DNA of 60,517 nt from Candidatus Cloacimonadota bacterium (GTDB lineage Bacteria > Cloacimonadota > Cloacimonadia > Cloacimonadales > TCS61): the NCBI GenBank assembly GCA_023137125.1, contig JAGLPW010000107.1, positions 1 to 60,517 of the forward strand, in the 5' to 3' direction. How positions within the stretch are numbered: the stretch's first letter is position 1; each line of letters starts with the position of its first letter. Of the stretch, positions 6,157 through 60,517 are shown in pieces. The notes beneath the pieces were generated by a model. It was not told the origin of the DNA and ran no database searches. It saw nothing but the letters and a program-made list of their open reading frames with translations. The translations under genes and the position numbers were made by a program.

Positions 6157-7806
6157 TCATTTCAACAACAAACATTTCTTAACTACTTCAGTTTTACCAT
6201 TCACATTTAGTTTGTAAAGATAAACACCTGAACTGACAGAATTTCCAAAATCATCATCACCATTCCAGATAATTGAATGCTCTCCTGTAGGGATTTGGTC
6301 GTTTAAAAGTGATTTTATCTTCTGTCCTTTGATGTTGTATATACTTAGTTCAACTTCAGATTCTTCATGGATTGAGAAAGAAATTGTTGTAGTGGGATTG
6401 AAGGGATTGGGGTAATTAGTTAAAACATTAATTGTCGTAATTATTTCATCTTCAATAGAAGTAATATTATCTATCTTTGCTACAAATATATCAGAATTCC
6501 CACTACTGGTTAGATTAAAGGAACCAAAACTTGCTATTCCTCTATAATATCCTGTTACATACACATTTCCTTCGGCATCTGTGCTTATTGCAAATCCATT
6601 ATCATAAGTACTTCCCCCGGCACTTTCTGCCCAAATCCAATTACCGTTAGAATCCATCTTTGTAACAAAAATATCTCTCTCACCACTGCTGGTTAAATTA
6701 AAAGAGCCAAAACTTGCTGTGCCATGAAAATATCCTGACACGTAGACATTCTCATCAATGTCTGTGCTTATTCCAGATCCACCATCATACTCACTTCCCC
6801 CAGCATTTTTTGCCCAGATCCAATTTCCATTAGGATCCATCTTTGCTACAAAAATATCAGAGACCCCATTGCTGGTTAGATTATAAGAACCAAAATTTGC
6901 TAAATAATCAAAATATCCAGTTACATATACATTCCCATCAGCATCTGTGTTTATTGCTTTTCCTATATCCCCATAACTTCCCCCAGCACCTTCTACCCAG
7001 AGCCAGTTACCATTAGGATCCATCTTTGCTACAAAAATATCATGGTCCCCACTACTGGTTAAATTGAAAGAACCAAAACTTCCTGTTCCTCGGAAAGATC
7101 CAGTTACATATAAATTCCCATCAGCATCTGTGCTTATTCCAGATCCACCATCATACTCACTTCCCCCAGCATTTTTTGCCCAGAGCCAGTTACCATTAGG
7201 ATCCATCTTTGCTACAAATATATCATCATCTCCATTGCTGGGAAGATCAAAAGAACCAAAACTTGCTGTTCCTTCGAAAATTCCTGTTACATATACATTC
7301 CCATTAGAGTCTGTGCATATTGCAATTCCGTATTCTAAATCACTTCCCCCAGCACTTTCTGCCCAGAGCCAGTTACCATTAGGATCCATCTTTGCTACAA
7401 AAATATCATAGGCCCCATTGCTGGTTAGATTAAAAGAACCAAAATTTGCTGAATAATCAAAATACCCAGTTATATATACGTTTCCATCAACGTCTGTGCT
7501 TATTCCAAATCCACAATCATCAGAACTCCCACCGGCATTTTCTACCCAGAGCCAATTACCATTTGCATCCATCTTTGCTACAAAAATATCAGAGCTCCCA
7601 CTGCTGGTTAAGTTAAAAGAACCAAAACTTGCTGTACCAGAGAAATTTCCAGTTACATATACATTCCCATCACCATCTGTGCTTATTCCAGATCCACCAT
7701 CATAATTATTCCCTCCGGCACTTTCAGCCCATAACCATTCAGGTGCTTGGGCAAAAAGTAAAAATGAAAGTGTAATAAATAATAAAATTGAAAGTAGCCT
7801 TTTCAT
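6157..7806 (-). CDS. Secreted beta-propeller-repeat (SBBP-like) protein with T9SS C-terminal sorting domain
   Basis: Start at MKRLLS (GGAGGA RBS). Signal peptide, seven 61-aa NGNWLW..AGG..DGNVYVTG..SFGSFNLTS..DIFVAKMD repeats, and a C-terminal NYPNPFNPTTTISFSI...LLLK. Confidence 0.8.
   Translation of the reverse strand: MKRLLSILLFITLSFLLFAQAPEWLWAESAGGNNYDGGSGISTDGDGNVYVTGNFSGTASFGSFNLTSSGSSDIFVAKMDANGNWLWVENAGGSSDDCGFGISTDVDGNVYITGYFDYSANFGSFNLTSNGAYDIFVAKMDPNGNWLWAESAGGSDLEYGIAICTDSNGNVYVTGIFEGTASFGSFDLPSNGDDDIFVAKMDPNGNWLWAKNAGGSEYDGGSGISTDADGNLYVTGSFRGTGSFGSFNLTSSGDHDIFVAKMDPNGNWLWVEGAGGSYGDIGKAINTDADGNVYVTGYFDYLANFGSYNLTSNGVSDIFVAKMDPNGNWIWAKNAGGSEYDGGSGISTDIDENVYVSGYFHGTASFGSFNLTSSGERDIFVTKMDSNGNWIWAESAGGSTYDNGFAISTDAEGNVYVTGYYRGIASFGSFNLTSSGNSDIFVAKIDNITSIEDEIITTINVLTNYPNPFNPTTTISFSIHEESEVELSIYNIKGQKIKSLLNDQIPTGEHSIIWNGDDDFGNSVSSGVYLYKLNVNGKTEVVKKCLLLK
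6463..7746 (-). repeat. Seven tandem 183-bp coding repeats
   Basis: ccagttaccattaggatccatctttgctacaaa recurs at about 7003, 7186 and 7369, with variants at about 6637, 6820 and 7552. The period is 183 bp. Confidence 0.85.
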
Positions 7807-7828
7807 CTTTTCCTCCAAAATAAATAGC

Positions 7829-10565: not shown

Positions 10566-12050
10566 TTATTCTAATAATAGCATTTTTTTGTGCAAGCTTT
10601 TTTTACCGGTGATGAGTGTATATAAATAAACACCTGAACTTACTCGTTTATTATTATAATCTCTTCCATCCCAAATAACTGAATGTTGTCCAACTGATAA
10701 TTGATCGTTAAGAAGTGTTATGATTCTTTGTCCTTTGATGTTGGAAATGGATAATTCTACTTTACTTTCTTCTGGAATTGAGAAAGAGATTGTTGTTGTT
10801 GGGTTGAATGGATTTGGATAAGCTGATTTCAGATCAGTACAATCTATTGTTTCTACAAAATCATTATTTAATGCTGTATAATTCCCAGTTGTAAAATGCC
10901 ACATTCCGCTCCAAAGTGATTCATTTTCAGATGTAGATTTTATTCTCCACCAATACTCTGTATCAGGAAGCAATTCCGGAGAAAAAGTGAATGTATTATT
11001 CGAAGTATAAAGCCCATCACCAATGTAAATGAGATTATCATTTGAAATTCCCAAATAAAGCTCATACATAGCACCGGATTCTGCACCTTGCCAAGATAAC
11101 TCACTATTGTAAGCAACATTCTCCGCATGTCTTGTTGGAAAAGGATAACATGCTACATTTAAGTTTGCTGTAAAAGGATAATTAAGAGTACAGAATCCTC
11201 GACTCTCAAGAATTGGAATATGAACTTCCAATGCTTCTTGGGATATTGGATTAGTAAATATCCCAAGATATTGGATATACAAATAATCATCCAAGCCTAG
11301 ATTGGTGTTCTCCACTAACGGAAAAATATCTGTAATTTGGTTATCCTCTAGATGCAAATTATTTAAGTTCGTTAAATTAGAAATTGCTGAGATGTCGGTG
11401 ATCTGGTTGCTCTCTAGATGCAAAATATTCAAACTCAGCATACTGGAAATCGCTGAGATGTCTATGACCTGATTGTTGTCTAATCTAAATAATGTTAAAT
11501 TTGTAAGTCCGGAAAGTGCAGATATATCACTGATTTGATTATTGTACAAACTCAAAATCGTTAAATATGTAAGTCCGGAAAGTGAGATTATGTCACTGAT
11601 TTGATTATTGTGTAAACTCAAATATGTTAAATTTGTCAGTTCGGAAAGTGCGGTTAAATCACTGATCTGATTACCCAATAATTCCAAACGTGTTAAATTT
11701 ATCAGACCAGTAAGTGCATTTATTTCACTGATCTGATTACTCCACAAATCCAAACGCGTTAAATTCGATAGCCCGGACAGAACAGATATGTCACTGATCT
11801 GATTAATATGTAAATCCAACCATATTAAATTCGTTAAGTACTGAGCACCTTCGATAGATATAATATTTGCATTGCTAGCATTCAGAGTCCCGGTTAAACC
11901 ATTCAAATCGGCAATGGTAGGTTCATACTCTGGGGGTTGGCCAAGCGCTTCATTAATTTCTTCTCGGAAATTATCATCCGGTATAATTTGAGCAAAAAGC
12001 CCAAATCCCATAATACTAATAATAACTATTAAAAATAATTTATTACTCAT
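10566..12050 (-). CDS. Leucine-rich-repeat (internalin-like) secreted protein with T9SS C-terminal domain
   Basis: Start at MSNKLF (GGAGGA RBS). About eight 22-aa LTNLTxLxLxxNQISDISxLSG repeats and a C-terminal AYPNPFNPTTTISFSI...MLLLE. Confidence 0.8.
   Translation of the reverse strand: MSNKLFLIVIISIMGFGLFAQIIPDDNFREEINEALGQPPEYEPTIADLNGLTGTLNASNANIISIEGAQYLTNLIWLDLHINQISDISVLSGLSNLTRLDLWSNQISEINALTGLINLTRLELLGNQISDLTALSELTNLTYLSLHNNQISDIISLSGLTYLTILSLYNNQISDISALSGLTNLTLFRLDNNQVIDISAISSMLSLNILHLESNQITDISAISNLTNLNNLHLEDNQITDIFPLVENTNLGLDDYLYIQYLGIFTNPISQEALEVHIPILESRGFCTLNYPFTANLNVACYPFPTRHAENVAYNSELSWQGAESGAMYELYLGISNDNLIYIGDGLYTSNNTFTFSPELLPDTEYWWRIKSTSENESLWSGMWHFTTGNYTALNNDFVETIDCTDLKSAYPNPFNPTTTISFSIPEESKVELSISNIKGQRIITLLNDQLSVGQHSVIWDGRDYNNKRVSSGVYLYTLITGKKSLHKKMLLLE
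11310..11837 (-). repeat. 66-bp periodic LRR coding repeats
   Basis: Recurrent gtcactgatttgattattgt / tcactgatctgatta units with a 66-bp period. Confidence 0.7.
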
Positions 12051-24237: not shown

Positions 24238-25044
24238 TCAATCAGCAAAGTATTCATTTGCAAAGCCATTATTTATATTTTGCTCAATATCACTTTCCAA
24301 ATCATCCTCCAGCATCCAAAGAAAATCTAATCCTGATCTTTGTTCTACATCATCAACAGTAACTAGATGATCTAATATATTGTAATCTCTTGATGTATCC
24401 TGATCAAAAATAAAAGCGACCACTTTGATGGATCCCGATTGTTCAATACAGATTATCTTCCAGTAGCCACTAGGAACTTTATGAGGTTCGTCACATCGAG
24501 GAAGTGGATCCATATCTCTCTCATATAGGGGACCTGTCATTACATAGGTAGTATTACAACTTTTTACAATATCTCTTACCTTATTTTCCACTCTAACCCA
24601 TGCTCCTTGATTAAGATCAGATTTTTGAGGTGTTATATTACTTAAATAATTAGTATGAGTGGCATACTTCGATCCTTTATATGATGCAAGTGGAGTTTGA
24701 TGTCCTCTGTCTGTATGAAGTGTATCATTTGCATCTTCATAGTCATCGGGATTCGGTTCTAATGTCTCATTCTCATCTAACCAAGGATCTGCTTTCCAAT
24801 TTTTTTTAACAGTTAACTCCCCGTCAACTTCATGCATGGTTAGTCTATAGGCTACCCAATCTGCAAACTTTGTCGAATCATTGTTAGAAAGCGCATAAAT
24901 ATCCCGTACAATTAAATCATTTGTTTCTGGAGTACCATAAGGATAACCATAAAAAAAATGTTTGCAATGTATCTCTGGACGATGTTCTTGTGCACTAACT
25001 GTAATTGCTATCAAGAACGTTAAAATAAAATAGATAGTCTTCAT
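24238..25044 (-). CDS. Secreted DNA/RNA non-specific endonuclease (Serratia NucA / EndoG family)
   Basis: Signal peptide, the DRGHQTP catalytic motif and a downstream N (SNITPQ). Confidence 0.85.
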   Translation of the reverse strand: MKTIYFILTFLIAITVSAQEHRPEIHCKHFFYGYPYGTPETNDLIVRDIYALSNNDSTKFADWVAYRLTMHEVDGELTVKKNWKADPWLDENETLEPNPDDYEDANDTLHTDRGHQTPLASYKGSKYATHTNYLSNITPQKSDLNQGAWVRVENKVRDIVKSCNTTYVMTGPLYERDMDPLPRCDEPHKVPSGYWKIICIEQSGSIKVVAFIFDQDTSRDYNILDHLVTVDDVEQRSGLDFLWMLEDDLESDIEQNINNGFANEYFAD

Positions 25045-25528
25045 AAAGCACTCCTTTGTTAAAATAGTTAGGCAGCAATGAAGATTAAAAGAAGTGCAAG
25101 TTTATTATAAGAGAGTCAGAAGTATATAAGCATATACAAACTTTACACTTCCTTATCTACAAAGGAAGAAATTTCCCTATCTTTTATTTTGTCAATCATT
25201 TCATATAAATTTCATATGAATTATAGTTTGTAAAAGTACTTTTAAGGTCAATGTGAATATGGGAAAGTTCTCTAAAATAAAAGAAAGGTATTTCTCTTTT
25301 CAGAGGGCTGTCAGGAACATATATCTATTGGCAGGGGGTGTCCCCCTTCTTTGGGGGCTTCCAATTCACTAATAGATATCTTAATTCATAATATTAGAGA
25401 ACTAATCTCAGTAACCGATTCATTAAGAACTATCAAATACTATTATTCTTAACACTAAAATGATTTAAAGTAAATATCTTTTATAATTTGCTTAATAAGA
25501 ACAAAAGGAAAACTCATGAAATTAATTT

Positions 25529-25633
25529 ATGGCGTCATAACTCCCAATTTAAAAGTTATGACGCCATAAAATCTCGTAACTATAGGTTGGTTATGCGCCA
25601 CAAAAAAATAGACGCAGCGTACATATGTTACAG
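25529..25633 (+). other. Conserved cassette-array leader A (hairpin, conserved blocks and GTTACAG box)
   Basis: About 85 percent identical to 59611-59714 in three blocks: atggcgYcataactcccaatttaaaagttatgacg, gtaactataggttggttatgcgc and cgcagcgtRcatatgttacagg. Confidence 0.65.
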
Positions 25634-25994
25634 GCAGTTGGGAACATTAAGTCCGGTGTAGAAGTAACTTCGGGTTGAAACTGATTTTCTAAAACTGGAC
25701 AATTTTTGGAAGCCGACAAAAGTCGGAAAATAAGTTTGTATAACGAAAAGGATAACGGAATTTGCGGTGGAAGTTCAGGATAAGCAAATTTTTTGCCAAT
25801 TCGCCGGAAACTACGACCTGTACGTTCAGTGAAAGTTCCAGCTCAAAGTTTTGAAGTTAATTAGAAGATATAAATCGTGGGTTACCTTTACAGGAATTCA
25901 GAGGTGCAATTGTCACAAAATTTGCAAGTGCTCCTCCACTGTTGTTTGGGCAAATTCCATTCCATTTTCTTATTTGTCCGGTGGAAAGAACTGC

Positions 25995-26122
25995 CTGTAA
26001 CAGGCGTATCTGCGGTAGTGCTGGTTTGTTTGTTTTGGTTTGAATCTAACGATTCAAACTTTGGTTAGTTTGCTTAACGCTGGGATCGTAACCGATCCCG
26101 CCGCATACGCAAAACATTATAC
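25995..26122 (+). repeat. attC-like site 0 (128 nt)
   Basis: CTGTAAC-agg-cgtatCTgcgg ... tttgaatctaacgattcaaa ... gggatcgtaaccgatccc-gccgcatacg-caaaac-ATTATAC. Confidence 0.8.
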
Positions 26123-26138
26123 GTTTCAGGGAGTGTAA

Positions 26139-27248
26139 GTGAAAATAAAATTATTGTTAATAATAGTTTTAAGTCTTTATATAGGATTTTTATATTGTTC
26201 TCTTGAAATTACTGAAATCACTGAAACATACAATAATGGAGCAACAAAAAGAGAAGTATTTTATTTAGGTAATAAAAACACGGAAACTATTTATAGAAAA
26301 AATGGGTCAATACATTTCGTAAAGAGGTATATGGGAGGATATTCAAAAATTGGAACATGGATAGAGTACAATAAAGATGAGCGTGCAGTTAAAGCAGGGA
26401 ATTTTATTGTTGGTGAAAAAGAAGATTCTTTTTTAAAAGATATAAAAGATGGATATTACAATGAGTTTTTCGATAAAGATAAACTCTCTTTAACTACTTT
26501 TTTCTTTGAAAATAAAATTAATGGTGTATGGTTAGAATACTATTCAAATGGAAATTTAAAGTGTAAAGGTATTGTTATAGATGGATACTTTGAAGAATTG
26601 GAACATTATAATGAAGATGGCGTAAAACTTAATGTTGAATTAGAAAATGGAAACTATTCTCACACCATATATTTCAATGATATTGGTAAATTTGAATATT
26701 ATTTTTCACGTAAACTAGATTCTGAAAGTTCAATAATTGAAAGTATGGATTTTGGTTATTATGAAAATGGACATTTACGTAGCGTCGAACAAAAAAATGA
26801 ACATACAGAAATTGATCTTACTTTCTGGGATAATGCAAATATTAAACAACTATATAATACCAATTTGAAGTCTGGTATTTCAAACTTAATAAAGTTTCAT
26901 GAAAATGGAAGAGTAAAAGTAAGTGGTTTTTCTCGAGACAATTCTAATATTGGTAAAATATATGAATACTTTGAATCAGGCAAGATAAAGCAAATTGTTA
27001 AATTTCCTAACGAATCAAAAGACCCCTTTGATCTGGAAGAAATTTCAGAATATTACGAAAATGGTAATCTTAAGTATAAACTTTGTTATGTTGAAAAAAA
27101 AGTTTACAAATCTTTTTCATATTATGCTAAAAATGGTGAATTGATTTTTGAATCATCTGAGCAAGATGATATTGAAAAACTAGTTAGAGTATGGTCTGGT
27201 GGAGCTACATACACAATTGAATTTGACGAAACAAAAGTCGGAAAATGA
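26139..27248 (+). CDS. Secreted MORN-variant / YwqK-like repeat protein (cassette 1)
   Basis: GTG start with AGGGAG RBS and a signal peptide. Repeats such as INGVWLEYYSNGNLKCKG, ISEYYENGNLKYK and GKIYEYFESGKIKQ. Confidence 0.7.
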   Translation: MKIKLLLIIVLSLYIGFLYCSLEITEITETYNNGATKREVFYLGNKNTETIYRKNGSIHFVKRYMGGYSKIGTWIEYNKDERAVKAGNFIVGEKEDSFLKDIKDGYYNEFFDKDKLSLTTFFFENKINGVWLEYYSNGNLKCKGIVIDGYFEELEHYNEDGVKLNVELENGNYSHTIYFNDIGKFEYYFSRKLDSESSIIESMDFGYYENGHLRSVEQKNEHTEIDLTFWDNANIKQLYNTNLKSGISNLIKFHENGRVKVSGFSRDNSNIGKIYEYFESGKIKQIVKFPNESKDPFDLEEISEYYENGNLKYKLCYVEKKVYKSFSYYAKNGELIFESSEQDDIEKLVRVWSGGATYTIEFDETKVGK

Positions 27249-27251
27249 AAC

Positions 27252-27377
27252 GTATAACAAGCGTATCTGCGGGTGGGTTCATTATTCTTTCCAGCTTGAA
27301 TCTTACGATTCAAACCTTGTTTTATTTGTTTCGGGGCGTGATCGTTCCGATCCCGCCGCACACGCAAAACATTAGCA
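27252..27377 (+). repeat. attC-like site 1 (126 nt)
   Basis: GTATAAC-aa-gcgtatctgcgg ... ttgaatcttacgattcaa ... gatcgttccgatc-ccgccgcacacg-caaaac-ATTAGCA. Confidence 0.8.
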
Positions 27378-27463
27378 ACGGCGGGTAACATAAGTAGAAA
27401 CATAATAGAAGTTAGATATATGTGATTCATAAAAAAAGATTATTAAACAATTGGAGGGAAAAA

Positions 27464-28633
27464 ATGAAACGTTTTTTTGTAGTAATTACATTTTTTTTAA
27501 TATCTTTAAATGTATTCTCACAAATTCCAGATAATATTATTAGAGATGATGAAATTTTGGTAGAACAATTCGTAGATGATTGGCAGGCTGAGAATTGGAT
27601 ATACGATGAACATCATATTTACGAGTATAATGATGAAAATTTGCTGTCAGAATATACAATAATGAAATTCATAGATGATGAATGGCACAATAGTAAATTA
27701 CGGACTTATACCTACGATCCAGATGGATTATTAACAGAAATGATAGTTTTCAATACTTCTTATGGAGAATGGATTAATTACCAAAAATATACTTATGCTT
27801 ATTTCGAAAACAATCTGTTAAGTGAATATATTTACAGTATGTGGGAAAATGATTTATGGGAAGCAAGATATCGACACCAGTATATTTATAATGATAATCA
27901 ATTATTAATAAAGCATTATAGGGATGAATGGACAGGCTCAGGATGGCATGCAGAATATGGTAATTGGTTTTCATATAATTCGAATGAAGAATTAATTGAG
28001 GATTTAGCAAAAAGGTGGATTGGGTACTGGACAAATAATAGTCGTCATGAATATAGTTACAATTCTCATGGGGATTGTGAGACTTATCTTTTTTTCATTT
28101 GGGATGATGAATTCTATGAATGGTGGTTAATGAATGATTATTTCTATGAATACGAATATGAAAATAACATAAAGATTACAAAAACTACTTCATATTATTC
28201 AAATTATGATAATAAAGAAGTTTACTCTTATAATATCAATGGTAATCTTATAGAAACAATACAACAGGATTGGTCTTCAGGAACATGGATAAATGACGCA
28301 CGTATTTCTTCAATTTATGAAACTACACATGTTTATGAATATGAAATTGTAAATCAAAAGAATACAATCAATGTTTTTCCAAATCCATTCAATCCATTAA
28401 CAACAATAGAGTTTTCTATCTACAACGATTCAAAAGTTGAACTTACAATATACAACATAAAAGGCCAAAAAATTAAAACCTTAGCTCAAAATGAATTTAC
28501 AAAAGGTTTACATTCAATTATTTGGAATGGTGATGATGAATTGAATAATCCTGTTAGTTCAGGAACCTATTTCTACAAATTAAATATAAATGGTAAAACT
28601 GAAGCAGTCAAGAAGTGTTTGCTTTTAAAATGA
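27464..28633 (+). CDS. Hypothetical secreted W/Y/E-rich protein with T9SS C-terminal domain (cassette 2)
   Basis: Start taken at MKRFFVV (GGAGGG RBS); the listed ORF starts at GTG 27422. C-terminal VFPNPFNPLTTIEFSI...CLLLK. Confidence 0.7.
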   Translation: MKRFFVVITFFLISLNVFSQIPDNIIRDDEILVEQFVDDWQAENWIYDEHHIYEYNDENLLSEYTIMKFIDDEWHNSKLRTYTYDPDGLLTEMIVFNTSYGEWINYQKYTYAYFENNLLSEYIYSMWENDLWEARYRHQYIYNDNQLLIKHYRDEWTGSGWHAEYGNWFSYNSNEELIEDLAKRWIGYWTNNSRHEYSYNSHGDCETYLFFIWDDEFYEWWLMNDYFYEYEYENNIKITKTTSYYSNYDNKEVYSYNINGNLIETIQQDWSSGTWINDARISSIYETTHVYEYEIVNQKNTINVFPNPFNPLTTIEFSIYNDSKVELTIYNIKGQKIKTLAQNEFTKGLHSIIWNGDDELNNPVSSGTYFYKLNINGKTEAVKKCLLLK

Positions 28634-28642
28634 TAGAGATGT

Positions 28643-28692
28643 TGCTAACAAGCGTGTCAGTTTAGTTTCACTGCACACGCAGAACATTAGCA
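28643..28692 (+). repeat. attC-like site 2 (50 nt, short type)
   Basis: TGCTAAC-aag-cgtgtcag-tttagtttca-ctgcacacg-cagaac-ATTAGCA. Confidence 0.8.
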
Positions 28693-28719
28693 GAAATAGT
28701 GTAATAATCAGGAGATATT

Positions 28720-29478
28720 ATGATTGATTTCCAGCAAAAAATGCTTGAAGAACTCAACAAAGATTACAAGTTCTATTTAGGTGAACATCATATAGAATTA
28801 TTTTTACAGAAATATAAAACTCCAGAATTGACTAAAGATGATGTTCTTAATTTATTAGGTGACTTGCTATCAAGAAATTTAATTTACACTAATATTTGTA
28901 ATCGTATGTCAAATAATTGGTTTTATGTTTTATCTCCAAAAGGTAAAATATCATTAAATTCAGGTGATTATGACCCTTACAATGAAACAAGTTATATTAC
29001 ACATCTTGAAAGTGAAATTCCAAATATATCCGAAGATGTTTTAATTTATACTAAAGAATCAATAAAAAGTTTTAACAATCAATGTTATCTTGCAAGTGCA
29101 GTAATGATTGGTGTTGCTTCTGAATGTGCATTTAACGAAATGCTTTTAAACTTTTCATCTTGGCTAAAAGCTGGTAAAGAAAAAACAAAATTCTTAGGTT
29201 TTCAAAATAATTCGAGGATTATGTTTATAAACAAATTCATAGATTTTAGAAAATCAATACAAGTCAGAAAAACACAATTACCTAAGGATTTATCTGACAA
29301 TATGGCTTTAACTTTTGATGCAATATTAGATTTATTGCGAATTTATCGAAATGAGTCTGGTCATCCAACAGGAAAATTTATATCTCACAATAGTGCATTT
29401 CTAAACCTAAATATGTTTGCTCGATACTTACAGAAACTTTATTTGTTTAGGGATTTTTTTTATGTTAATAAAGAATAA
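28720..29478 (+). CDS. Hypothetical protein with HEPN-like Rx4H motif (cassette 3)
   Basis: AGGAG RBS. All-alpha-looking sequence. C-terminal LLRIYRNESGHPTG contains R-x4-H with N after the R. Confidence 0.5.
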   Translation: MIDFQQKMLEELNKDYKFYLGEHHIELFLQKYKTPELTKDDVLNLLGDLLSRNLIYTNICNRMSNNWFYVLSPKGKISLNSGDYDPYNETSYITHLESEIPNISEDVLIYTKESIKSFNNQCYLASAVMIGVASECAFNEMLLNFSSWLKAGKEKTKFLGFQNNSRIMFINKFIDFRKSIQVRKTQLPKDLSDNMALTFDAILDLLRIYRNESGHPTGKFISHNSAFLNLNMFARYLQKLYLFRDFFYVNKE

Positions 29479-29490
29479 TAGAATGACTTC

Positions 29491-29614
29491 TGCTAACAAA
29501 CGTGTCAGCGGTTCAGTCTGTCGGTGCTCTTTGCCTGAATCGTTCCGATTCAGGGTTTAGCGGTTTGTACGGGCTGAATCATTCTGATTCCACCGCACAC
29601 GCCAAACATTAGCT
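29491..29614 (+). repeat. attC-like site 3 (124 nt)
   Basis: TGCTAAC-aaa-cgtgtCAgcgg ... cctgaatcgttccgattcagg ... ggctgaatcattctgattcc-accgcacacg-ccaaac-ATTAGCT. Confidence 0.8.
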
Positions 29615-29647
29615 GAAATTATGTAATTGTTTAAAGATGGTGAATTA

Positions 29648-31606
29648 ATGAATAGAATTAAGTTTTATAGTCCTTCTGATATGTCTGTGGGACACAATCT
29701 TGAGCGAGCATTTGAAATTATAAAAAGTTTTGATTTTAATAGAGATGATTATGGTATAAATGAAATCATTGAGTTTTATAATATTAGCTGTTATATTGAT
29801 AATAACTTATTTTTAACGAGCTGGTCAAAAAGTGACTTAGAAGAAATTAAGATAGTTACAAAACAATATAAGATACTTCTAAGTAAAATTTACAATAATA
29901 TTAGTGATGATAATTTAAGTAATCTATTTAAGAATGTAGAAAGAAATTATACTGATAACTTTTGGGAACTATTTAATAAATATAAGGTTTATAAAAATAT
30001 AACAGAGAAAGAATTCGAAATAATATTAAATGATCTGAACCCTTCATTATTTGAGCTTCTCCAAAACAAACATTTAATAAACTATTTTGAAGTCTCTATC
30101 AGAAACTACATATTGTCTGATTCTAAGAATGCTGAAATATTATTAGATAAGTATGAAGTAAAAAATATGTTTGGAGAAACAAAAATATATTTCCCAAATA
30201 AACTTACTAATAAAGATAAAGAATTAGTAATTCATCAATATATTGATAGTGAGAATGCAAATCTAAATTATCTTAGACTAATTGAGAATATACAGAGCAG
30301 AAAAGATTTATTGGAAATTTCAGACAGAACTCGACTAAAGGCAAAAAAAGTAATTCAAATAAAAAATGAAGAGTTTTTTAAGATAAATGCGGGAATGAAA
30401 TTTGGCATTTCTGTACAATTTCGAGAAGATCAGGAAATTGAACTTGTAGAAAAGAAGGTTGGCAGTATCCTTAAATATTCATATAGTTCAAAGTGGATAC
30501 AAACAAACAATGATTATAGTACTTTGCTCAATAATTTTGTTCATTTGTTCAATTATACAGATTTACAAATGCGCATATCTTTGGTTAGTAAGCCAAATGA
30601 ACTTGGTTTATTTGAAAAGCATATAGGTCTCCAATCTCAGAGCGCATACGTAACAGGTTTAGTTTACTCTCAAAAAAACAATTTATCTATTCTTCAATTA
30701 ATTGGTTATTCTCATCAATTAGAAATAATGGATATTAGCATTGAAAAATTAATTGAGTGGTTTTTTAAAGAGTATCTTCTAAATGAATTCAATATAAAAA
30801 ACTATAGAATAACATTGCCTTCAAATAACTCGAAATTTTTAGAAAAATGTAGAGCAATCCTCCCCGAAATTGAAAGTGTTTTAAAGCAATTCAATTTATT
30901 TATTGAGGATGGTGAGATAAATCAGGAATTGTTTCAAATGTCTTCTGGTCATCTTCTTTTTAGTAATTGTAAAAGCTTAATTGATAAAAAATATATTTAC
31001 CCTCGTGAAGGTGATTTTGTACGAATTTCTTATTACTTTTTTTCAGACCAATGTATGTTAGCTTACGTAAAAAGAATAGAAGATAAATATTCCAATTTTT
31101 TTGAACTTCTTATAAAAGAGTCTATTTATTTTGAAGATTATCCTGAATATCTTAAACCCGATCTAAAATGGTTACTAGAGAACGAATATATAACAATAAA
31201 TGAAAACAAAGAATTAATGTTTTCTAATTTTCTACAAATATTCATTTTAAAAGATTTATATGATAATGAAGTTATTAATTATTGGAATAAATCATCAAAA
31301 TATCAAATTGAAATTGATAAATTATTAAAAAATGGCTTATTTAAATCAGAAAGTTCTTTGTTTTCTAAACCTGAACAAGATTATTTTAATTATCATTTAA
31401 ATAAATCCAAGTTCAACAATTCGTTGGATTTAAGAAATATGTATAGTCACGGCACTCAGCCAAATGATGAAGATGATAATGAAAAACACCAAAACCACTA
31501 TTTGATTTTTCTAAAACTCTTTATTTTATTAATCATCAAAATTAATGATGAGTGTTGCATAGTAAATAACCCTAACTATTTAAAAAAAGATTCAAGTAAT
31601 GAGTAA
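29648..31606 (+). CDS. Large hypothetical protein with C-terminal HEPN-like Rx4H motif (cassette 4)
   Basis: Start taken at MNRIKFY (GGTGA upstream); the listed ORF starts at TTG 29627. Near the C-terminus, SLDLRNMYSHGTQP contains R-x4-H. Confidence 0.5.
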   Translation: MNRIKFYSPSDMSVGHNLERAFEIIKSFDFNRDDYGINEIIEFYNISCYIDNNLFLTSWSKSDLEEIKIVTKQYKILLSKIYNNISDDNLSNLFKNVERNYTDNFWELFNKYKVYKNITEKEFEIILNDLNPSLFELLQNKHLINYFEVSIRNYILSDSKNAEILLDKYEVKNMFGETKIYFPNKLTNKDKELVIHQYIDSENANLNYLRLIENIQSRKDLLEISDRTRLKAKKVIQIKNEEFFKINAGMKFGISVQFREDQEIELVEKKVGSILKYSYSSKWIQTNNDYSTLLNNFVHLFNYTDLQMRISLVSKPNELGLFEKHIGLQSQSAYVTGLVYSQKNNLSILQLIGYSHQLEIMDISIEKLIEWFFKEYLLNEFNIKNYRITLPSNNSKFLEKCRAILPEIESVLKQFNLFIEDGEINQELFQMSSGHLLFSNCKSLIDKKYIYPREGDFVRISYYFFSDQCMLAYVKRIEDKYSNFFELLIKESIYFEDYPEYLKPDLKWLLENEYITINENKELMFSNFLQIFILKDLYDNEVINYWNKSSKYQIEIDKLLKNGLFKSESSLFSKPEQDYFNYHLNKSKFNNSLDLRNMYSHGTQPNDEDDNEKHQNHYLIFLKLFILLIIKINDECCIVNNPNYLKKDSSNE

Positions 31607-31632
31607 GGTTAATTTCTTATATAATAAAATTC

Positions 31633-31716
31633 AGCTAACAAACGTGTCAGCGGGTAAGCTGGGTGGTTTGTTTGGGCTGAATCGTACCGATTCAGGGTTT
31701 GGTCGGTTTGTTTTGG
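31633..31716 (+). repeat. attC-like site 4, truncated (5' arm and first internal hairpin only)
   Basis: AGCTAAC-aaa-cgtgtcagcgg ... ggctgaatcgtaccgattcagg-gtttggtcggtttg. Homology to site 3 then stops, and there is no ccgcacacg...ATTA arm. Confidence 0.65.
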
Positions 31717-31828
31717 ACGTGATTGTATTCTTAAAGAGAATATATAAAGGCAAGGACAGAAAATATTCTGTTTTTGTTGTTTTTGTATAGATTTCACAAC
31801 GATTTTCACAACGATTATAGAATTACTA

Positions 31829-58231: not shown

Positions 58232-59539
58232 ATGATATTAAATCCAGTAGAATTAATTATAAAGAAGAAAACCGGAAAAGAATTAACACAAACTGAATTG
58301 GAATATTTTATTAATTCCTATATAAATAATGAGATCCCAGAGTACCAGATGTCTGCAATGCTGATGGCGATCTATTTCAAAAGTATGAAGATCGAAGAAA
58401 TTCAGACCTTAGCAAAAGTATATATCGAATCCGGAAAACAGATCACATTTCCAAAATCTGATAAAACTGTAGATAAGCATTCCACCGGTGGTGTTGGAGA
58501 TAAAATAACCATTATGCTGGCACCAATTGTTGCGGCTTGTGGTGGGAAGATCCCGATGATATCCGGTCGTGGATTAGGTCATACAGGCGGTACATTAGAT
58601 AAACTTGAATCAATTCCCGGTTTTAGAACTGATTTCAATGACACAGAATTCAAAGAAATAATTGAGAAAGTTGGATTTTGCATTATAAGTCAATCAGAAG
58701 AACTGGTCCCTGCCGACCGTAGGATCTACGCTTTGAGGGATGTTACCGGGACTGTGGAAAGTCTGCCGTTAATTACTGCCAGTATAATGAGTAAGAAAAT
58801 TGCTGAAGGCGCACAAAATCTTGTAATCGATCTTAAAATTGGGTCAGGTGCATTTATAAAAGATCTTGAAACCGGCAAAGAACTCGCTAACCTTCTCATA
58901 AAGACCGGAGTAAAATTCGGACAGAAAGTTTCCGTAGTATTTTCTAATATGAATTCCCCGCTTGGTGGATATATCGGTAATGCTTTAGAGATAAAGGAAA
59001 CTATTGAATACTTGCAAGGTAAAGATATTCCGGATATAGATATTTTAACAAAAACTTTAGCTGTAGAAATGCTATTACTCTCTGAAGTTGCTGCCACAGA
59101 AGAAGAAGCTATGACCATGATAGAAGATGTGATAAAAAGTGGTAAAGCTCTGGAATGTTTCAAAGATTCCATCGCTGCTCAAGGTGGAAACCCAGGAATT
59201 TGCGATGATGTATCTCTATTACCTCAAGCTAAATATAAGATCCCAATTATTTCACAAAGATCCGGATGGATAAATTCTATTAATTCCCAACAGATCGGTT
59301 ATGCCCTAATTGAAATAGGGGCAGGTAGAAAAACTCTTGATTCCAAATTAGATTACTCCTCAGGAGCATATCTAACCAAGAAGATCGGTGATGAAATTAG
59401 TGAAGGTGAAACTATTGGATATGTATTCTGTAATAATAAGAGTGAGGGAGAAAATATCATCCCTAAAATACTGAACAGCTATGAGCTGATTAATGAAAAA
59501 GTTCAAAAGGAAAACTTAATTCTCGAAATCTTGAAATAA
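58232..59539 (+). CDS. deoA: Thymidine / pyrimidine-nucleoside phosphorylase
   Basis: DKHSTGGVGDK, SGRGLGHTGGTLDKLE and IMSKK motifs. Confidence 0.9.
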   Translation: MILNPVELIIKKKTGKELTQTELEYFINSYINNEIPEYQMSAMLMAIYFKSMKIEEIQTLAKVYIESGKQITFPKSDKTVDKHSTGGVGDKITIMLAPIVAACGGKIPMISGRGLGHTGGTLDKLESIPGFRTDFNDTEFKEIIEKVGFCIISQSEELVPADRRIYALRDVTGTVESLPLITASIMSKKIAEGAQNLVIDLKIGSGAFIKDLETGKELANLLIKTGVKFGQKVSVVFSNMNSPLGGYIGNALEIKETIEYLQGKDIPDIDILTKTLAVEMLLLSEVAATEEEAMTMIEDVIKSGKALECFKDSIAAQGGNPGICDDVSLLPQAKYKIPIISQRSGWINSINSQQIGYALIEIGAGRKTLDSKLDYSSGAYLTKKIGDEISEGETIGYVFCNNKSEGENIIPKILNSYELINEKVQKENLILEILK

Positions 59540-59610
59540 TTTTGAAATTAAATGAGAAAATATATAATAAAAAGCCCTTCAGATTAAATTGATTTAGATG
59601 ATGATAATTA

Positions 59611-59714
59611 ATGGCGCCATAACTCCCAATTTAAAAGTTATGACGAACCTTTTGGTGTAACTATAGGTTGGTTATGCGCACCTTTTTGGTGGGCGCAGCG
59701 TGCATATGTTACAG
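59611..59714 (+). other. Conserved cassette-array leader B
   Basis: Same three conserved blocks as 25529-25633. Ends in catatG-TTACAGG. Confidence 0.65.
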
Positions 59715-59743
59715 GTAATTAAATATAAAAAATAGGAGATTTT

Positions 59744-60445
59744 ATGAAAAAAACGAAAATTCTTACATATACACTTTCAGTTTTGATTCTATTGATTGTG
59801 AGTTGTACAGATTCGACAGAACCCGATGAAAATGCAAAAATTAATGGTCAGGTAACAAATTCTCTGGGTGAACCAATTTCTGATGCAAAAATAATGCTAA
59901 CTTATTATACTGAGTCAATTGCTACAAGACCACTTACGACTTTTTCGTATGACTTAACTGATTCATTACATATAAAATTATGGATTACTTATCACAATGT
60001 ATCTGATACAGTCAAAGTTTTAATCGACGAGTATCTAGAACCTGGAAATTACAGTGTCCAATGGGATTCTACAAATAGTTATGGACTTATTGAAGTGAGC
60101 AATTATTATGATTGGCATATTAAAATGGGTACTAATCAAATAGACGATAAATTATTATTAAATGTGACATATTCTGATATTACAAGTGATGATGTGAATA
60201 AATATGAATGTTTTGCAATGACTGACGGTAATGGTCATTATGATTTTGAAATTGATAAACTGCCTTTTTCATTTTCTGATAATGAAATTGAGATTACAGA
60301 TGAATATGGCAATGTAATTGATATTGTAAAAGTTAGTAGAACTGTTAAAATTTGGGCTCTACATACAGATTATGATCCTGTTTTTATTGATTCAGTTTAT
60401 ATAAATGAGAATTCGATAACTGAAGGTAATCTAAGCTTTGATTGA
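59744..60445 (+). CDS. Hypothetical lipoprotein (CarboxypepD_reg-like N-terminus?), cassette-borne
   Basis: Lipobox LIVSC. INGQVTNSLGEPISDAKIML resembles the start of a carboxypeptidase-regulatory-like domain. Confidence 0.6.
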   Translation: MKKTKILTYTLSVLILLIVSCTDSTEPDENAKINGQVTNSLGEPISDAKIMLTYYTESIATRPLTTFSYDLTDSLHIKLWITYHNVSDTVKVLIDEYLEPGNYSVQWDSTNSYGLIEVSNYYDWHIKMGTNQIDDKLLLNVTYSDITSDDVNKYECFAMTDGNGHYDFEIDKLPFSFSDNEIEITDEYGNVIDIVKVSRTVKIWALHTDYDPVFIDSVYINENSITEGNLSFD

Positions 60446-60453
60446 GAAACTAC

Positions 60454-60517
60454 CTGTAACAAGCGTGTCAGCGGTTGGGTCAGTTGGTGTTTTTCGTCTG
60501 AATCGTTCCGATTCAGG
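60454..60517 (+). repeat. attC-like site (5' part; cut by window end)
   Basis: CTGTAAC-aag-cgtgtcagcgg-ttgggtcagttggtg...tctgaatcgttccgattcagg. About 80 percent identical to the first 64 nt of site 3. Confidence 0.75.

Follow-up and report, generated by a model that had tools for sequence, protein, structure and literature searches.

What fixes the left end of a cassette array when no integrase gene lies beside it? The question is raised by contig JAGLPW010000107.1 of a Candidatus Cloacimonadota bacterium (assembly GCA_023137125.1), a stretch of 60,517 nt, here called the window, in which two unlinked cassette arrays of the integron type, A and B, are each immediately preceded on the 5′ side by a copy of the same leader sequence. 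The attI sites of integrons lie next to the integrase gene, intI, and a signpost without a nearby integrase departs from the normal integron build. We argue that the leader is probably a double-stranded, sequence-specific attI-type site, the fixed left partner to which cassettes are joined by an integron-type integrase, and we suggest that both arrays are clusters of attC sites that have no integron integrase (CALINs), headed by a portable attI-like site on which an integrase would act in trans.

Leader copy A (25516-25627, plus strand) ends at a crossover G at 25627 and copy B (59598-59708, plus strand) at the corresponding G at 59708. Both lie where a preliminary description of this DNA had located them, with the similarity starting approximately 13 nt further left (25516 and 59598). 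The two copies share three blocks, namely block 1 (ATGGCGYCATAACTCCCAATTTAAAAGTTATGACG, 35 nt), identical at 34/35 positions rather than the 36/37 first claimed, and block 2 (GTAACTATAGGTTGGTTATGCGC, 23/23) and block 3 (CGCAGCGTRCATATGTTACAGG, 21/22), for which the earlier counts hold. The two spacers between these blocks had been called diverged, and they are indeed, judged by eye from the alignment, about as dissimilar between A and B as unrelated sequence, while their lengths are nearly equal. The genes upstream also differ, as reported before, with an Endonuclease_NS gene on the minus strand to the left of copy A and deoA to the left of copy B. The spacers (25564-25575 and 25599-25612 in A; 59646-59656 and 59680-59693 in B) have runs of A in copy A and runs of T in B to E, those of copy A resembling reverse complements of the T-run spacers at equal length; a requirement for intrinsic bending, and not for a particular sequence, could lie behind this.

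Three additional leader copies, C, D and E, are present in contigs of other metagenomes. Copy C was found in an exact-pattern scan of Joint Genome Institute (JGI) metagenomes (contig L003), in which the pattern searched was GGTTGGTTATGCGC-N8-30-CATATGTTAC, and a longer version of the same contig (L090), reached through cassette-encoded proteins, places an EamA transporter gene upstream of it. Copies D, of a long form, and E, of a short form, occur in tandem in contigs L100-L102, which were reached via a CoiA-like cassette protein. When the five copies are aligned, 50/82 core columns are invariant, in the runs AGTTATGACG, TAACTATAGGTTGGTTATGCG and CATATGTTA, and the minimal core common to all five extends from AGTTATGACG to CATATGTTA, at 25554-25630 in copy A and 59636-59711 in copy B; the left half of block 1 is confined to the window genome. 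The core of copy B is 83-87% identical to copies C, D and E from other metagenomes and just 70% identical to copy A from its own genome. Invariance ends directly after CATATG/TTA (the slash marking the crossover point here and below), where the five copies continue with CAGGCAG, CAGGTAA, CAGGCAA, CACGAAA and GTGGCAA.

The strongest single result is that unrelated cassettes meet the leader at one and the same G/TT position, which is the classic mark of junctions made by an integrase. The junction box (GTTACAGG; 25627-25634 and 59708-59715, plus strand) is made up of a G that is the last leader base and of TTACAGG..., with which the first cassette begins. Cassette A1 starts with TTACAGGCAGTT, which over 12 nt is reverse-complementary to its own attC's outer stem, and the same relation holds over 9 nt for B1, in agreement with the earlier statement that the first cassette begins right after the G of GTTACAG. 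It holds over 9 nt also for cassette E1, which is joined to leader E and starts with TTAGTGGCA, to be compared with TGCCACTAA approximately 4.8 kb downstream, where the canonical attC outer stem reads TGCCACTAAC. Perfect runs of 8-12 nt between the cassette start and the cassette's own, not the upstream, attC were found in nine cassettes (A1-A5, B1-B3 and E1). The nine-base start of E2 (TTAGGTGAT) matches by eye, the script being one base out of register, and the start of B4 matches its own attC with an indel, while C1 fails. Since cassette starts are complementary to the outer stem of their own downstream attC, these are genuine integron-type arrays, and since A1, B1 and E1 are joined at the same phosphodiester bond, between G and TT, the leader behaves as an attI would.

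The position of the leader copies tells the same story. A profile built from the five copies matches leader copies alone in 1.66 Mb of sequence, with E-values of 1e-21 to 1e-29, and places them at array heads only, always in the same orientation as the array; all five are directly 5′ of cassettes and on the same strand. Frequent occurrence of the leader away from attC-like sites, which had been named beforehand as the result that would speak against an attI-like site, was not seen in this sequence. In the exact-pattern scans there were no matches in 185,579 species-representative genomes or in viral contigs and one match in JGI metagenomes. Because the final C of the pattern is a cassette base and its GCGC excludes copy D, copies resembling D and E are invisible to this search and the count is a lower bound. 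No leader is present in contigs L095-L099 and L103-L107, which were reached by protein homologues, or at 80 deoA loci.

Within the leader, GTTAY or its inverse RTAAC occurs in every copy at positions 0, -37, -51 and -71, the motifs at 0, -37 and -71 being direct and that at -51 inverted. The two leaders are the sole 110-nt stretches of the window to contain five such motifs, against a window mean of 0.5. The outermost of the constant motifs (GTTATGACG, plus strand) lies at 25555-25563 in A, at -72, and at 59637-59645 in B, at -71, and is invariant in 5/5 copies; the inverted RTAAC (minus strand; 25576-25580 and 59657-59661) opens the invariant run TAACTATAGGTTGGTTATGCG; and the direct motif at -37 (GTTATGCGC, plus strand; 25590-25598 and 59671-59679) reads GCGCATAAC on the minus strand. 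The fifth motif is variable, being inverted in A and B, at -90 (25537-25541 on the minus strand in A; top strand CGTCATAAC), direct in C and D, at -95 (GTTATTGCG), and lacking in E.

These features resemble those of attI1, the 65-bp site of class 1 integrons, which consists of the direct repeats DR2 and DR1, an L box and an R box, and of which IntI1 binds all four regions as duplex DNA (PMC12901181). The attI1 sequence, confirmed in at least 5000 plasmid records, contains GTTATGG, GTTACGC and GTTAGGC in direct order. Both attI1 and the leader stand at the head of an array, carry several motifs with a GTTA core, have the crossover between the G and TT of the last motif, and are conserved in sequence rather than in structure; attI1 has an inverted L box besides its direct repeats, and the leader, to judge from its conservation pattern, would like attI1 be recognised as a duplex. 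They differ in that the leader is not beside an integrase gene and occurs at least twice per genome, at loci unrelated to each other, in motif spacing (34-37 bp in the leader, 19 and 32 bp in attI1), in the lack of any sequence similarity beyond the GTTAY core, and in the cassette attCs of the leader's arrays, which read A/TTA rather than G/TT. By analogy, the core of approximately 85 nt would offer three direct (0, -37, -71) and one inverted (-51) predicted integrase-binding sites, separated by fixed-length spacers rich in A- or T-runs, and the motifs may build a synaptic complex in the manner of DR2, DR1, L and R. Strand exchange with a cassette attC, folded from its bottom strand, would then take place in the last motif, between G and TT, and the array would grow from that point, possibly to the present day.

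Could the leader instead be a special kind of attC, recombined as folded single-stranded DNA and belonging to a small cassette without an open reading frame (ORF) or to some upstream unit? The last part of the leader does present a GTAAC...GTTAC frame, copy A folds into an imperfect hairpin like that of an attC, copy E occupies the 3′ end of an ORF, the place of an attC in a cassette, and the unit in L090/L003 is preceded by GAAAG/TTATTGAC, a 7/8 match to the leader's inner GTTAATAAC. That match, however, amounts to 4/5 free bases (p approximately 0.02). The hairpin in block 1 of copy A, which was noted at the outset, is real (17 bp; z = -5.5 for single-stranded DNA folding against shuffles) and is private to that copy, copies B (z = -1.8) and C (z = -1.7) folding no better than shuffles. 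A consensus fold computed with RNAalifold is weak and has no compensatory pairs on either strand, so the proposed attC-like R″...R′ frame does not survive as a conserved fold. The attCs of these arrays keep their structure and lose their sequence, whereas the leader does the opposite, with primary sequence conserved in blocks, spacers of fixed length and variable structure, as expected of a site used as a duplex. Moreover, there is no matching cassette start upstream of A or B, and deoA ends 58 nt before the unit in B (59598). Carriage of the leader on a cassette was considered too and rejected, the predicted matching R″ not being found for A or B. An attC-type site is accordingly an improbable explanation.

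Around copies C and D the picture is more complex, as these two share another 170 nt or so upstream, beginning with CGTGAAAG/TTATTGAC, which is preceded by an attC-like hairpin in two contigs, so that in this population the leader may sit downstream of other cassettes. The region upstream of leader D also holds a motif with the pattern TTTCYTTACC..ATAGGTARAAAT, present four times (L102:100-360), and an 85-residue ORF that reads into the conserved unit and matches no Pfam family; a guess that this ORF is an N-terminal methylase had no Pfam support and was dropped. In the metagenomes holding C to E, three contigs (L092:1-125, L093:1-140 and L094:1-115) all start inside an attC that is 86% identical to that of A1 (outer stem CTGCCTGTAAC) and then run on through a 10-kb array. 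That all three break at a common point suggests that an A1-like cassette is repeated, perhaps with another leader in front of it.

Where, then, is the integrase? A tblastn search with IntI1 and XerD queries returned nothing in the window or in the first 83 loci, and gene and Pfam tables list no Phage_integrase family member from approximately 8.8 kb left of the window through to approximately 10 kb past deoA, nor in the 10 kb upstream of copy C. This leaves A and B without a tyrosine recombinase within approximately 33 kb and C without one in the 10 kb upstream of it, and the gaps between the upstream gene and the leader (470, 58 and approximately 350 nt for A, B and C) could not hold a gene and contain no remnant of one. 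The adjacency to intI that an attI-like reading leads one to expect is thus lacking. The attI-like reading itself, put forward in the preliminary description, is supported by conservation of sequence rather than structure, restriction to array heads, different cassettes joined at G/TT and, as set out below, an attI-ORF-ΔattI arrangement. Showing attI-like behaviour with no intI nearby, the leader is not part of a complete integron; since it is detached from any integrase gene and occurs in several copies per genome, an integrase using it would have to act in trans, and the arrays would be integrase-less satellite integrons.

With five attCs in array A, four to five in array B and no integrase nearby, both arrays fit the CALIN definition of Cury et al. 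2016 (two or more attC sites without intI nearby; PMC4889954). CALINs are, however, defined without a primary site, whereas arrays A and B have a conserved head. Loss of intI, rearrangement and cassette insertion at attG sites have been proposed as their origins (PMC4889954), and none of these predicts a conserved head of approximately 85 nt common to unlinked arrays and to two populations. The attG sites, and the single attC sites lacking integron integrases (SALINs), described by Loot et al. (bioRxiv 10.1101/2022.09.11.507474) are alike in that chromosomal cassettes occur there outside a complete integron, but an attG site is short and shows no conservation from one insertion point to another, while the leader is a long conserved module at the left junction.

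The surroundings of array B show that it is an insertion. The left neighbour, deoA (58232-59539, plus strand), stops 58 nt before 59598 and 71 nt before block 1 (59611), and its best tblastn matches are to metagenome-assembled genomes (MAGs) of Cloacimonadota at 53-65% identity. In three related genomes deoA is followed after 160-200 nt by rpmF-plsX-fabH, with the same CTTGACA promoter. The whole of array B is contained in contig L001, in which four cassettes, the last with half an attC, are followed by a 305-residue ORF of the MauE family, the rpmF promoter and the rpmF-plsX-fabH operon. As deoA and rpmF are neighbours in the relatives, the 5.6-5.7 kb or so between them here is an insertion. 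The MauE-family ORF, a predicted membrane protein (L001:16092-17009) between the half attC and the rpmF promoter, is absent from the relatives' deoA-rpmF interval and so seems to be part of the insertion, though without an attC.

Several of these observations weigh against an attI-type site, and many of them are what would be expected if the leader were a passive relic or hitch-hiker, that is, the conserved end of an ancestral platform or of a mobile carrier that delivered whole arrays, and no longer, or never, an insertion site. No integrase gene was located for either population, and action in trans is our supposition. Arrays are discrete insertions between housekeeping genes, and cassette turnover was not seen, as the same window-organism DNA, which recurs in several assemblies from a single ENA project and in the NCBI MAG GCA_030643505.1, has the same arrays in all contigs (5-6 samples and the one NCBI MAG). 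The last attC of both arrays in the window genome is a half site (31630-31722; L001:15971-16060), with R″-L″ intact and without L′-R′. Copies A, B and C all continue with TTACAGG after the G, which could be a native right arm rather than cassette DNA; it is accounted for in A and B by the own attCs of A1 and B1, while the first attC behind C (GCACTTAAC) does not match it. Copy C was found with a pattern that required TTAC, and its first bases resemble the A1 start, so C may be a fusion. Leader D is followed by an ORF without attC, so that the junction relation seen for A1, B1 and E1 fails there as it does for C1. The R box is outside the GTTRRRY consensus, the boxes being GTTACAG, GTTACAC and GTTAGTG and the cassette attCs reading A/TTAGC; GTTACAG had been taken for a canonical box, whereas GTTA alone is constant among the copies and the bases after it (CAGG, CACG or GTGG) belong to the cassette. 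Lastly, just two populations appear to carry the leader, as far as the exact pattern reveals its absence from the 185,579 species-representative genomes.

A relic would, however, decay evenly, whereas here blocks that are approximately 98% identical alternate with unrelated spacers and 50/82 columns are invariant across two populations, and leader E is joined at G/TT to a different cassette with a junction-matching attC of its own. Nor do the ends of the arrays look like those of a carrier, an idea entertained in the preliminary description. As opposed to the ends of transposons or insertion sequences, the leader has no inverted or direct partner end, and there is no target-site duplication above chance; the sequences beyond the two half attCs have no significant similarity to each other (a score of 18 for the right ends of the arrays versus 17.8 for shuffles). 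A transposon-like carrier was rejected, array B being flanked by an 11-mer, TTTGAAATTAA, of which approximately 0.4 are expected by chance (an estimate), and array A by nothing. We regard the relic as unlikely, and an attI-type site remains the preferred reading.

A further likeness to known attI sites comes from the tandem copies. In L102, leader D (770-876) is followed by an ORF (914-1540) for a 208-residue lipoprotein and then by leader E (1626-1706), which lacks everything upstream of about -83, and there is no attC between them. This is a ΔattI-type architecture. In class 1 and 2 integrons, attI-ORF-ΔattI and, once, attI1-ORF-attI1 arrangements have been described and are recombinationally active there (Gonzales Machuca et al. 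2026, PMC12901181); as in L100-L102, the site downstream of the ORF is of the attI type and not an attC. The known cases differ in being inside mobile integrons beside intI and in mostly keeping 14-18 nt of attI, against approximately 85 nt and no integrase nearby in L100-L102. The D-ORF-E order would be the expected product if a circle of ORF and leader had integrated into another leader at G/TT. A broader proposal, which we put forward tentatively and hold to be a good deal less secure than the attI-type site itself, is that the leaders are portable attI modules of approximately 85 nt, present several times per genome and common to populations, which seed and maintain arrays anywhere without a linked integrase and could travel as leader-ORF-leader units by duplex recombination of attI with attI. 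The E1 cassette (L100:1297-6101) encodes a UvrD-like protein with weak matches to GajB and a helicase that matches the Mokosh MkoA model (E 1e-46), and with its two helicase-like ORFs is possibly an anti-phage defence cassette.

The leader might also be mainly a regulatory element, such as a promoter, operator or 5′ leader that serves promoter-less cassettes in the manner of the Pc promoter. The cassettes are without promoters, the gene upstream of array A is divergent, so that this array needs a promoter of its own, and operators could be represented by the repeated motifs and the A/T tracts. Against this, neither leader contains a sigma-70-like promoter on the array strand, the conserved motifs belong to the recombinase-core type, and the conservation ends precisely at the crossover. 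No known RNA family was matched. A mainly regulatory role seems to us quite unlikely, while regulation as such is compatible with an attI-type site, class 1 attI regions also carrying promoters.

Least probable is a dif-like site used by the host XerC and XerD recombinases, as in integrative mobile elements exploiting Xer (IMEX) or the pdif modules of Acinetobacter. The XerD arm of dif is conserved more widely. Block 2 reads GGTGCGCATAA-CCAACC-TATAGTTAC on the minus strand (25590-25600 and 59671-59683), in which the left 11-mer, present in full in copies B, C and E, agrees at every position with the XerC arm of E. coli dif (GGTGCGCATAATGTATATTATGTTAAAT, PMC3025954). After the 6-nt spacer, however, the XerD-like arm is poor, matching just 6/11 positions of a TTATGTNAANT-like arm, of a kind that is closely alike among three dif seed sequences (PMC3025954). 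The poor XerD arm, the cassette junctions at block 3 and not block 2, and the occurrence of two copies 34 kb apart, neither of them at the replication terminus, show that this is not a dif site with its 11-6-11 core; the likeness was, besides, noticed post hoc. Xer and integron integrases share ancestry (PMC7790495), and the resemblance to the XerC arm may reflect this relatedness or chance.

Array A is located between the divergent Endonuclease_NS gene (24238-25044, minus strand), from which it is separated by the 470-nt gap, and a cluster of tRNA genes (His/Arg/Met/Met), ending approximately 160 nt before tRNA-His (31882). It consists of five cassettes on the plus strand. A1 (25628-26116) is without an ORF, and its attC (25994-26116; outer stem ACTGCCTGTAAC) has 12 nt of complementarity with the cassette start. 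A2 (26117-27371) encodes 369 residues (ORF 26139-27248) and has an attC at 27251-27371, also with 12-nt end complementarity. A3 (27372-28686) encodes a protein with a C-terminal sorting domain of the type IX secretion system (ORF 27422-28633) and has a short attC (28641-28686), A4 (28687-29608) has an ORF at 28720-29478 and an attC at 29488-29608, and A5 (29609-31722) has an ORF at 29627-31606 and the terminal attC (31630-31722), which keeps R″-L″ and the first inner hairpin and is without L′-R′. In array B, cassette B1 (59709-60517, plus strand) has an ORF at 59744-60445 and an attC that begins at 60453 and runs off the end of the window. The repeats between the ORFs of both arrays take the form NNNTAAC-AAGCGTGTCAGCGG...CCGCACACGC-AAAACA/TTANNN. 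On the bottom strand, the shortest of the attCs (28641-28686) folds into two stems, the R box with a T·G wobble and the L box with a single extrahelical base, separated by an unpaired central spacer, and a loop, and the longer attCs carry one or two extra inner hairpins.

A1, which lacks a credible ORF and is not notably folded as RNA, is also where the window differs from two assemblies of the same organism. Over 12.4 and 3.2 kb respectively, all four to five single-nucleotide polymorphisms (SNPs; 25777, 25778, 25795, 25833 and 25850) fall in one 75-nt portion of A1, as if this were a hypervariable spot or the cassette had paralogous copies; an invertible switch was rejected, as the SNP cluster is no inversion. 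Contig L087 (1-315), from the same organism, departs from the window at 30492 onward, in the middle of a 659-residue cassette ORF, probably as the result of a chimeric assembly. The gap between the nuclease gene and leader A contains, on the plus strand at 25331-25352, a GC-rich hairpin (GGGGGTGTCCCCC) with TTCTTT after it and no plus-strand gene upstream. Elsewhere in the window, six 183-nt tandem repeats lie inside a 553-residue ORF (6157-7818) and five to seven 66-nt repeats inside a 502-residue ORF (11326-11787; five copies in one repeat family and two in another, at 11326-11457), and several neighbouring minus-strand ORFs have a common 3′-terminal stretch of approximately 200 nt, which fits their annotated FlgD_ig/Por_Secre_tail C-terminal domains.

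To our knowledge, attI sites are known for just a handful of integron classes. Our literature search found no paper on a conserved primary site at integrase-less arrays, and the motif strings of the leader occur in no indexed paper. About 95% of CALINs are not near an intI pseudogene, and their origin and status are an open question; a conserved head in multiple copies would make some of them maintained platforms rather than debris. If the proposal of portable attI modules is true, the CALINs of Cloacimonadota-type bacteria would be organised satellite integrons served by one distant integrase and would provide a natural example of the ancestral, Xer-like duplex pathway of integron integrases. 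A conserved primary site would make the service of an integrase in trans directly testable. The leader would also give a sequence handle for array starts in a poorly known phylum, and its profile, together with attCs of the A/TTA type, could be used to mine the cassette pools of Cloacimonadota metagenomes.

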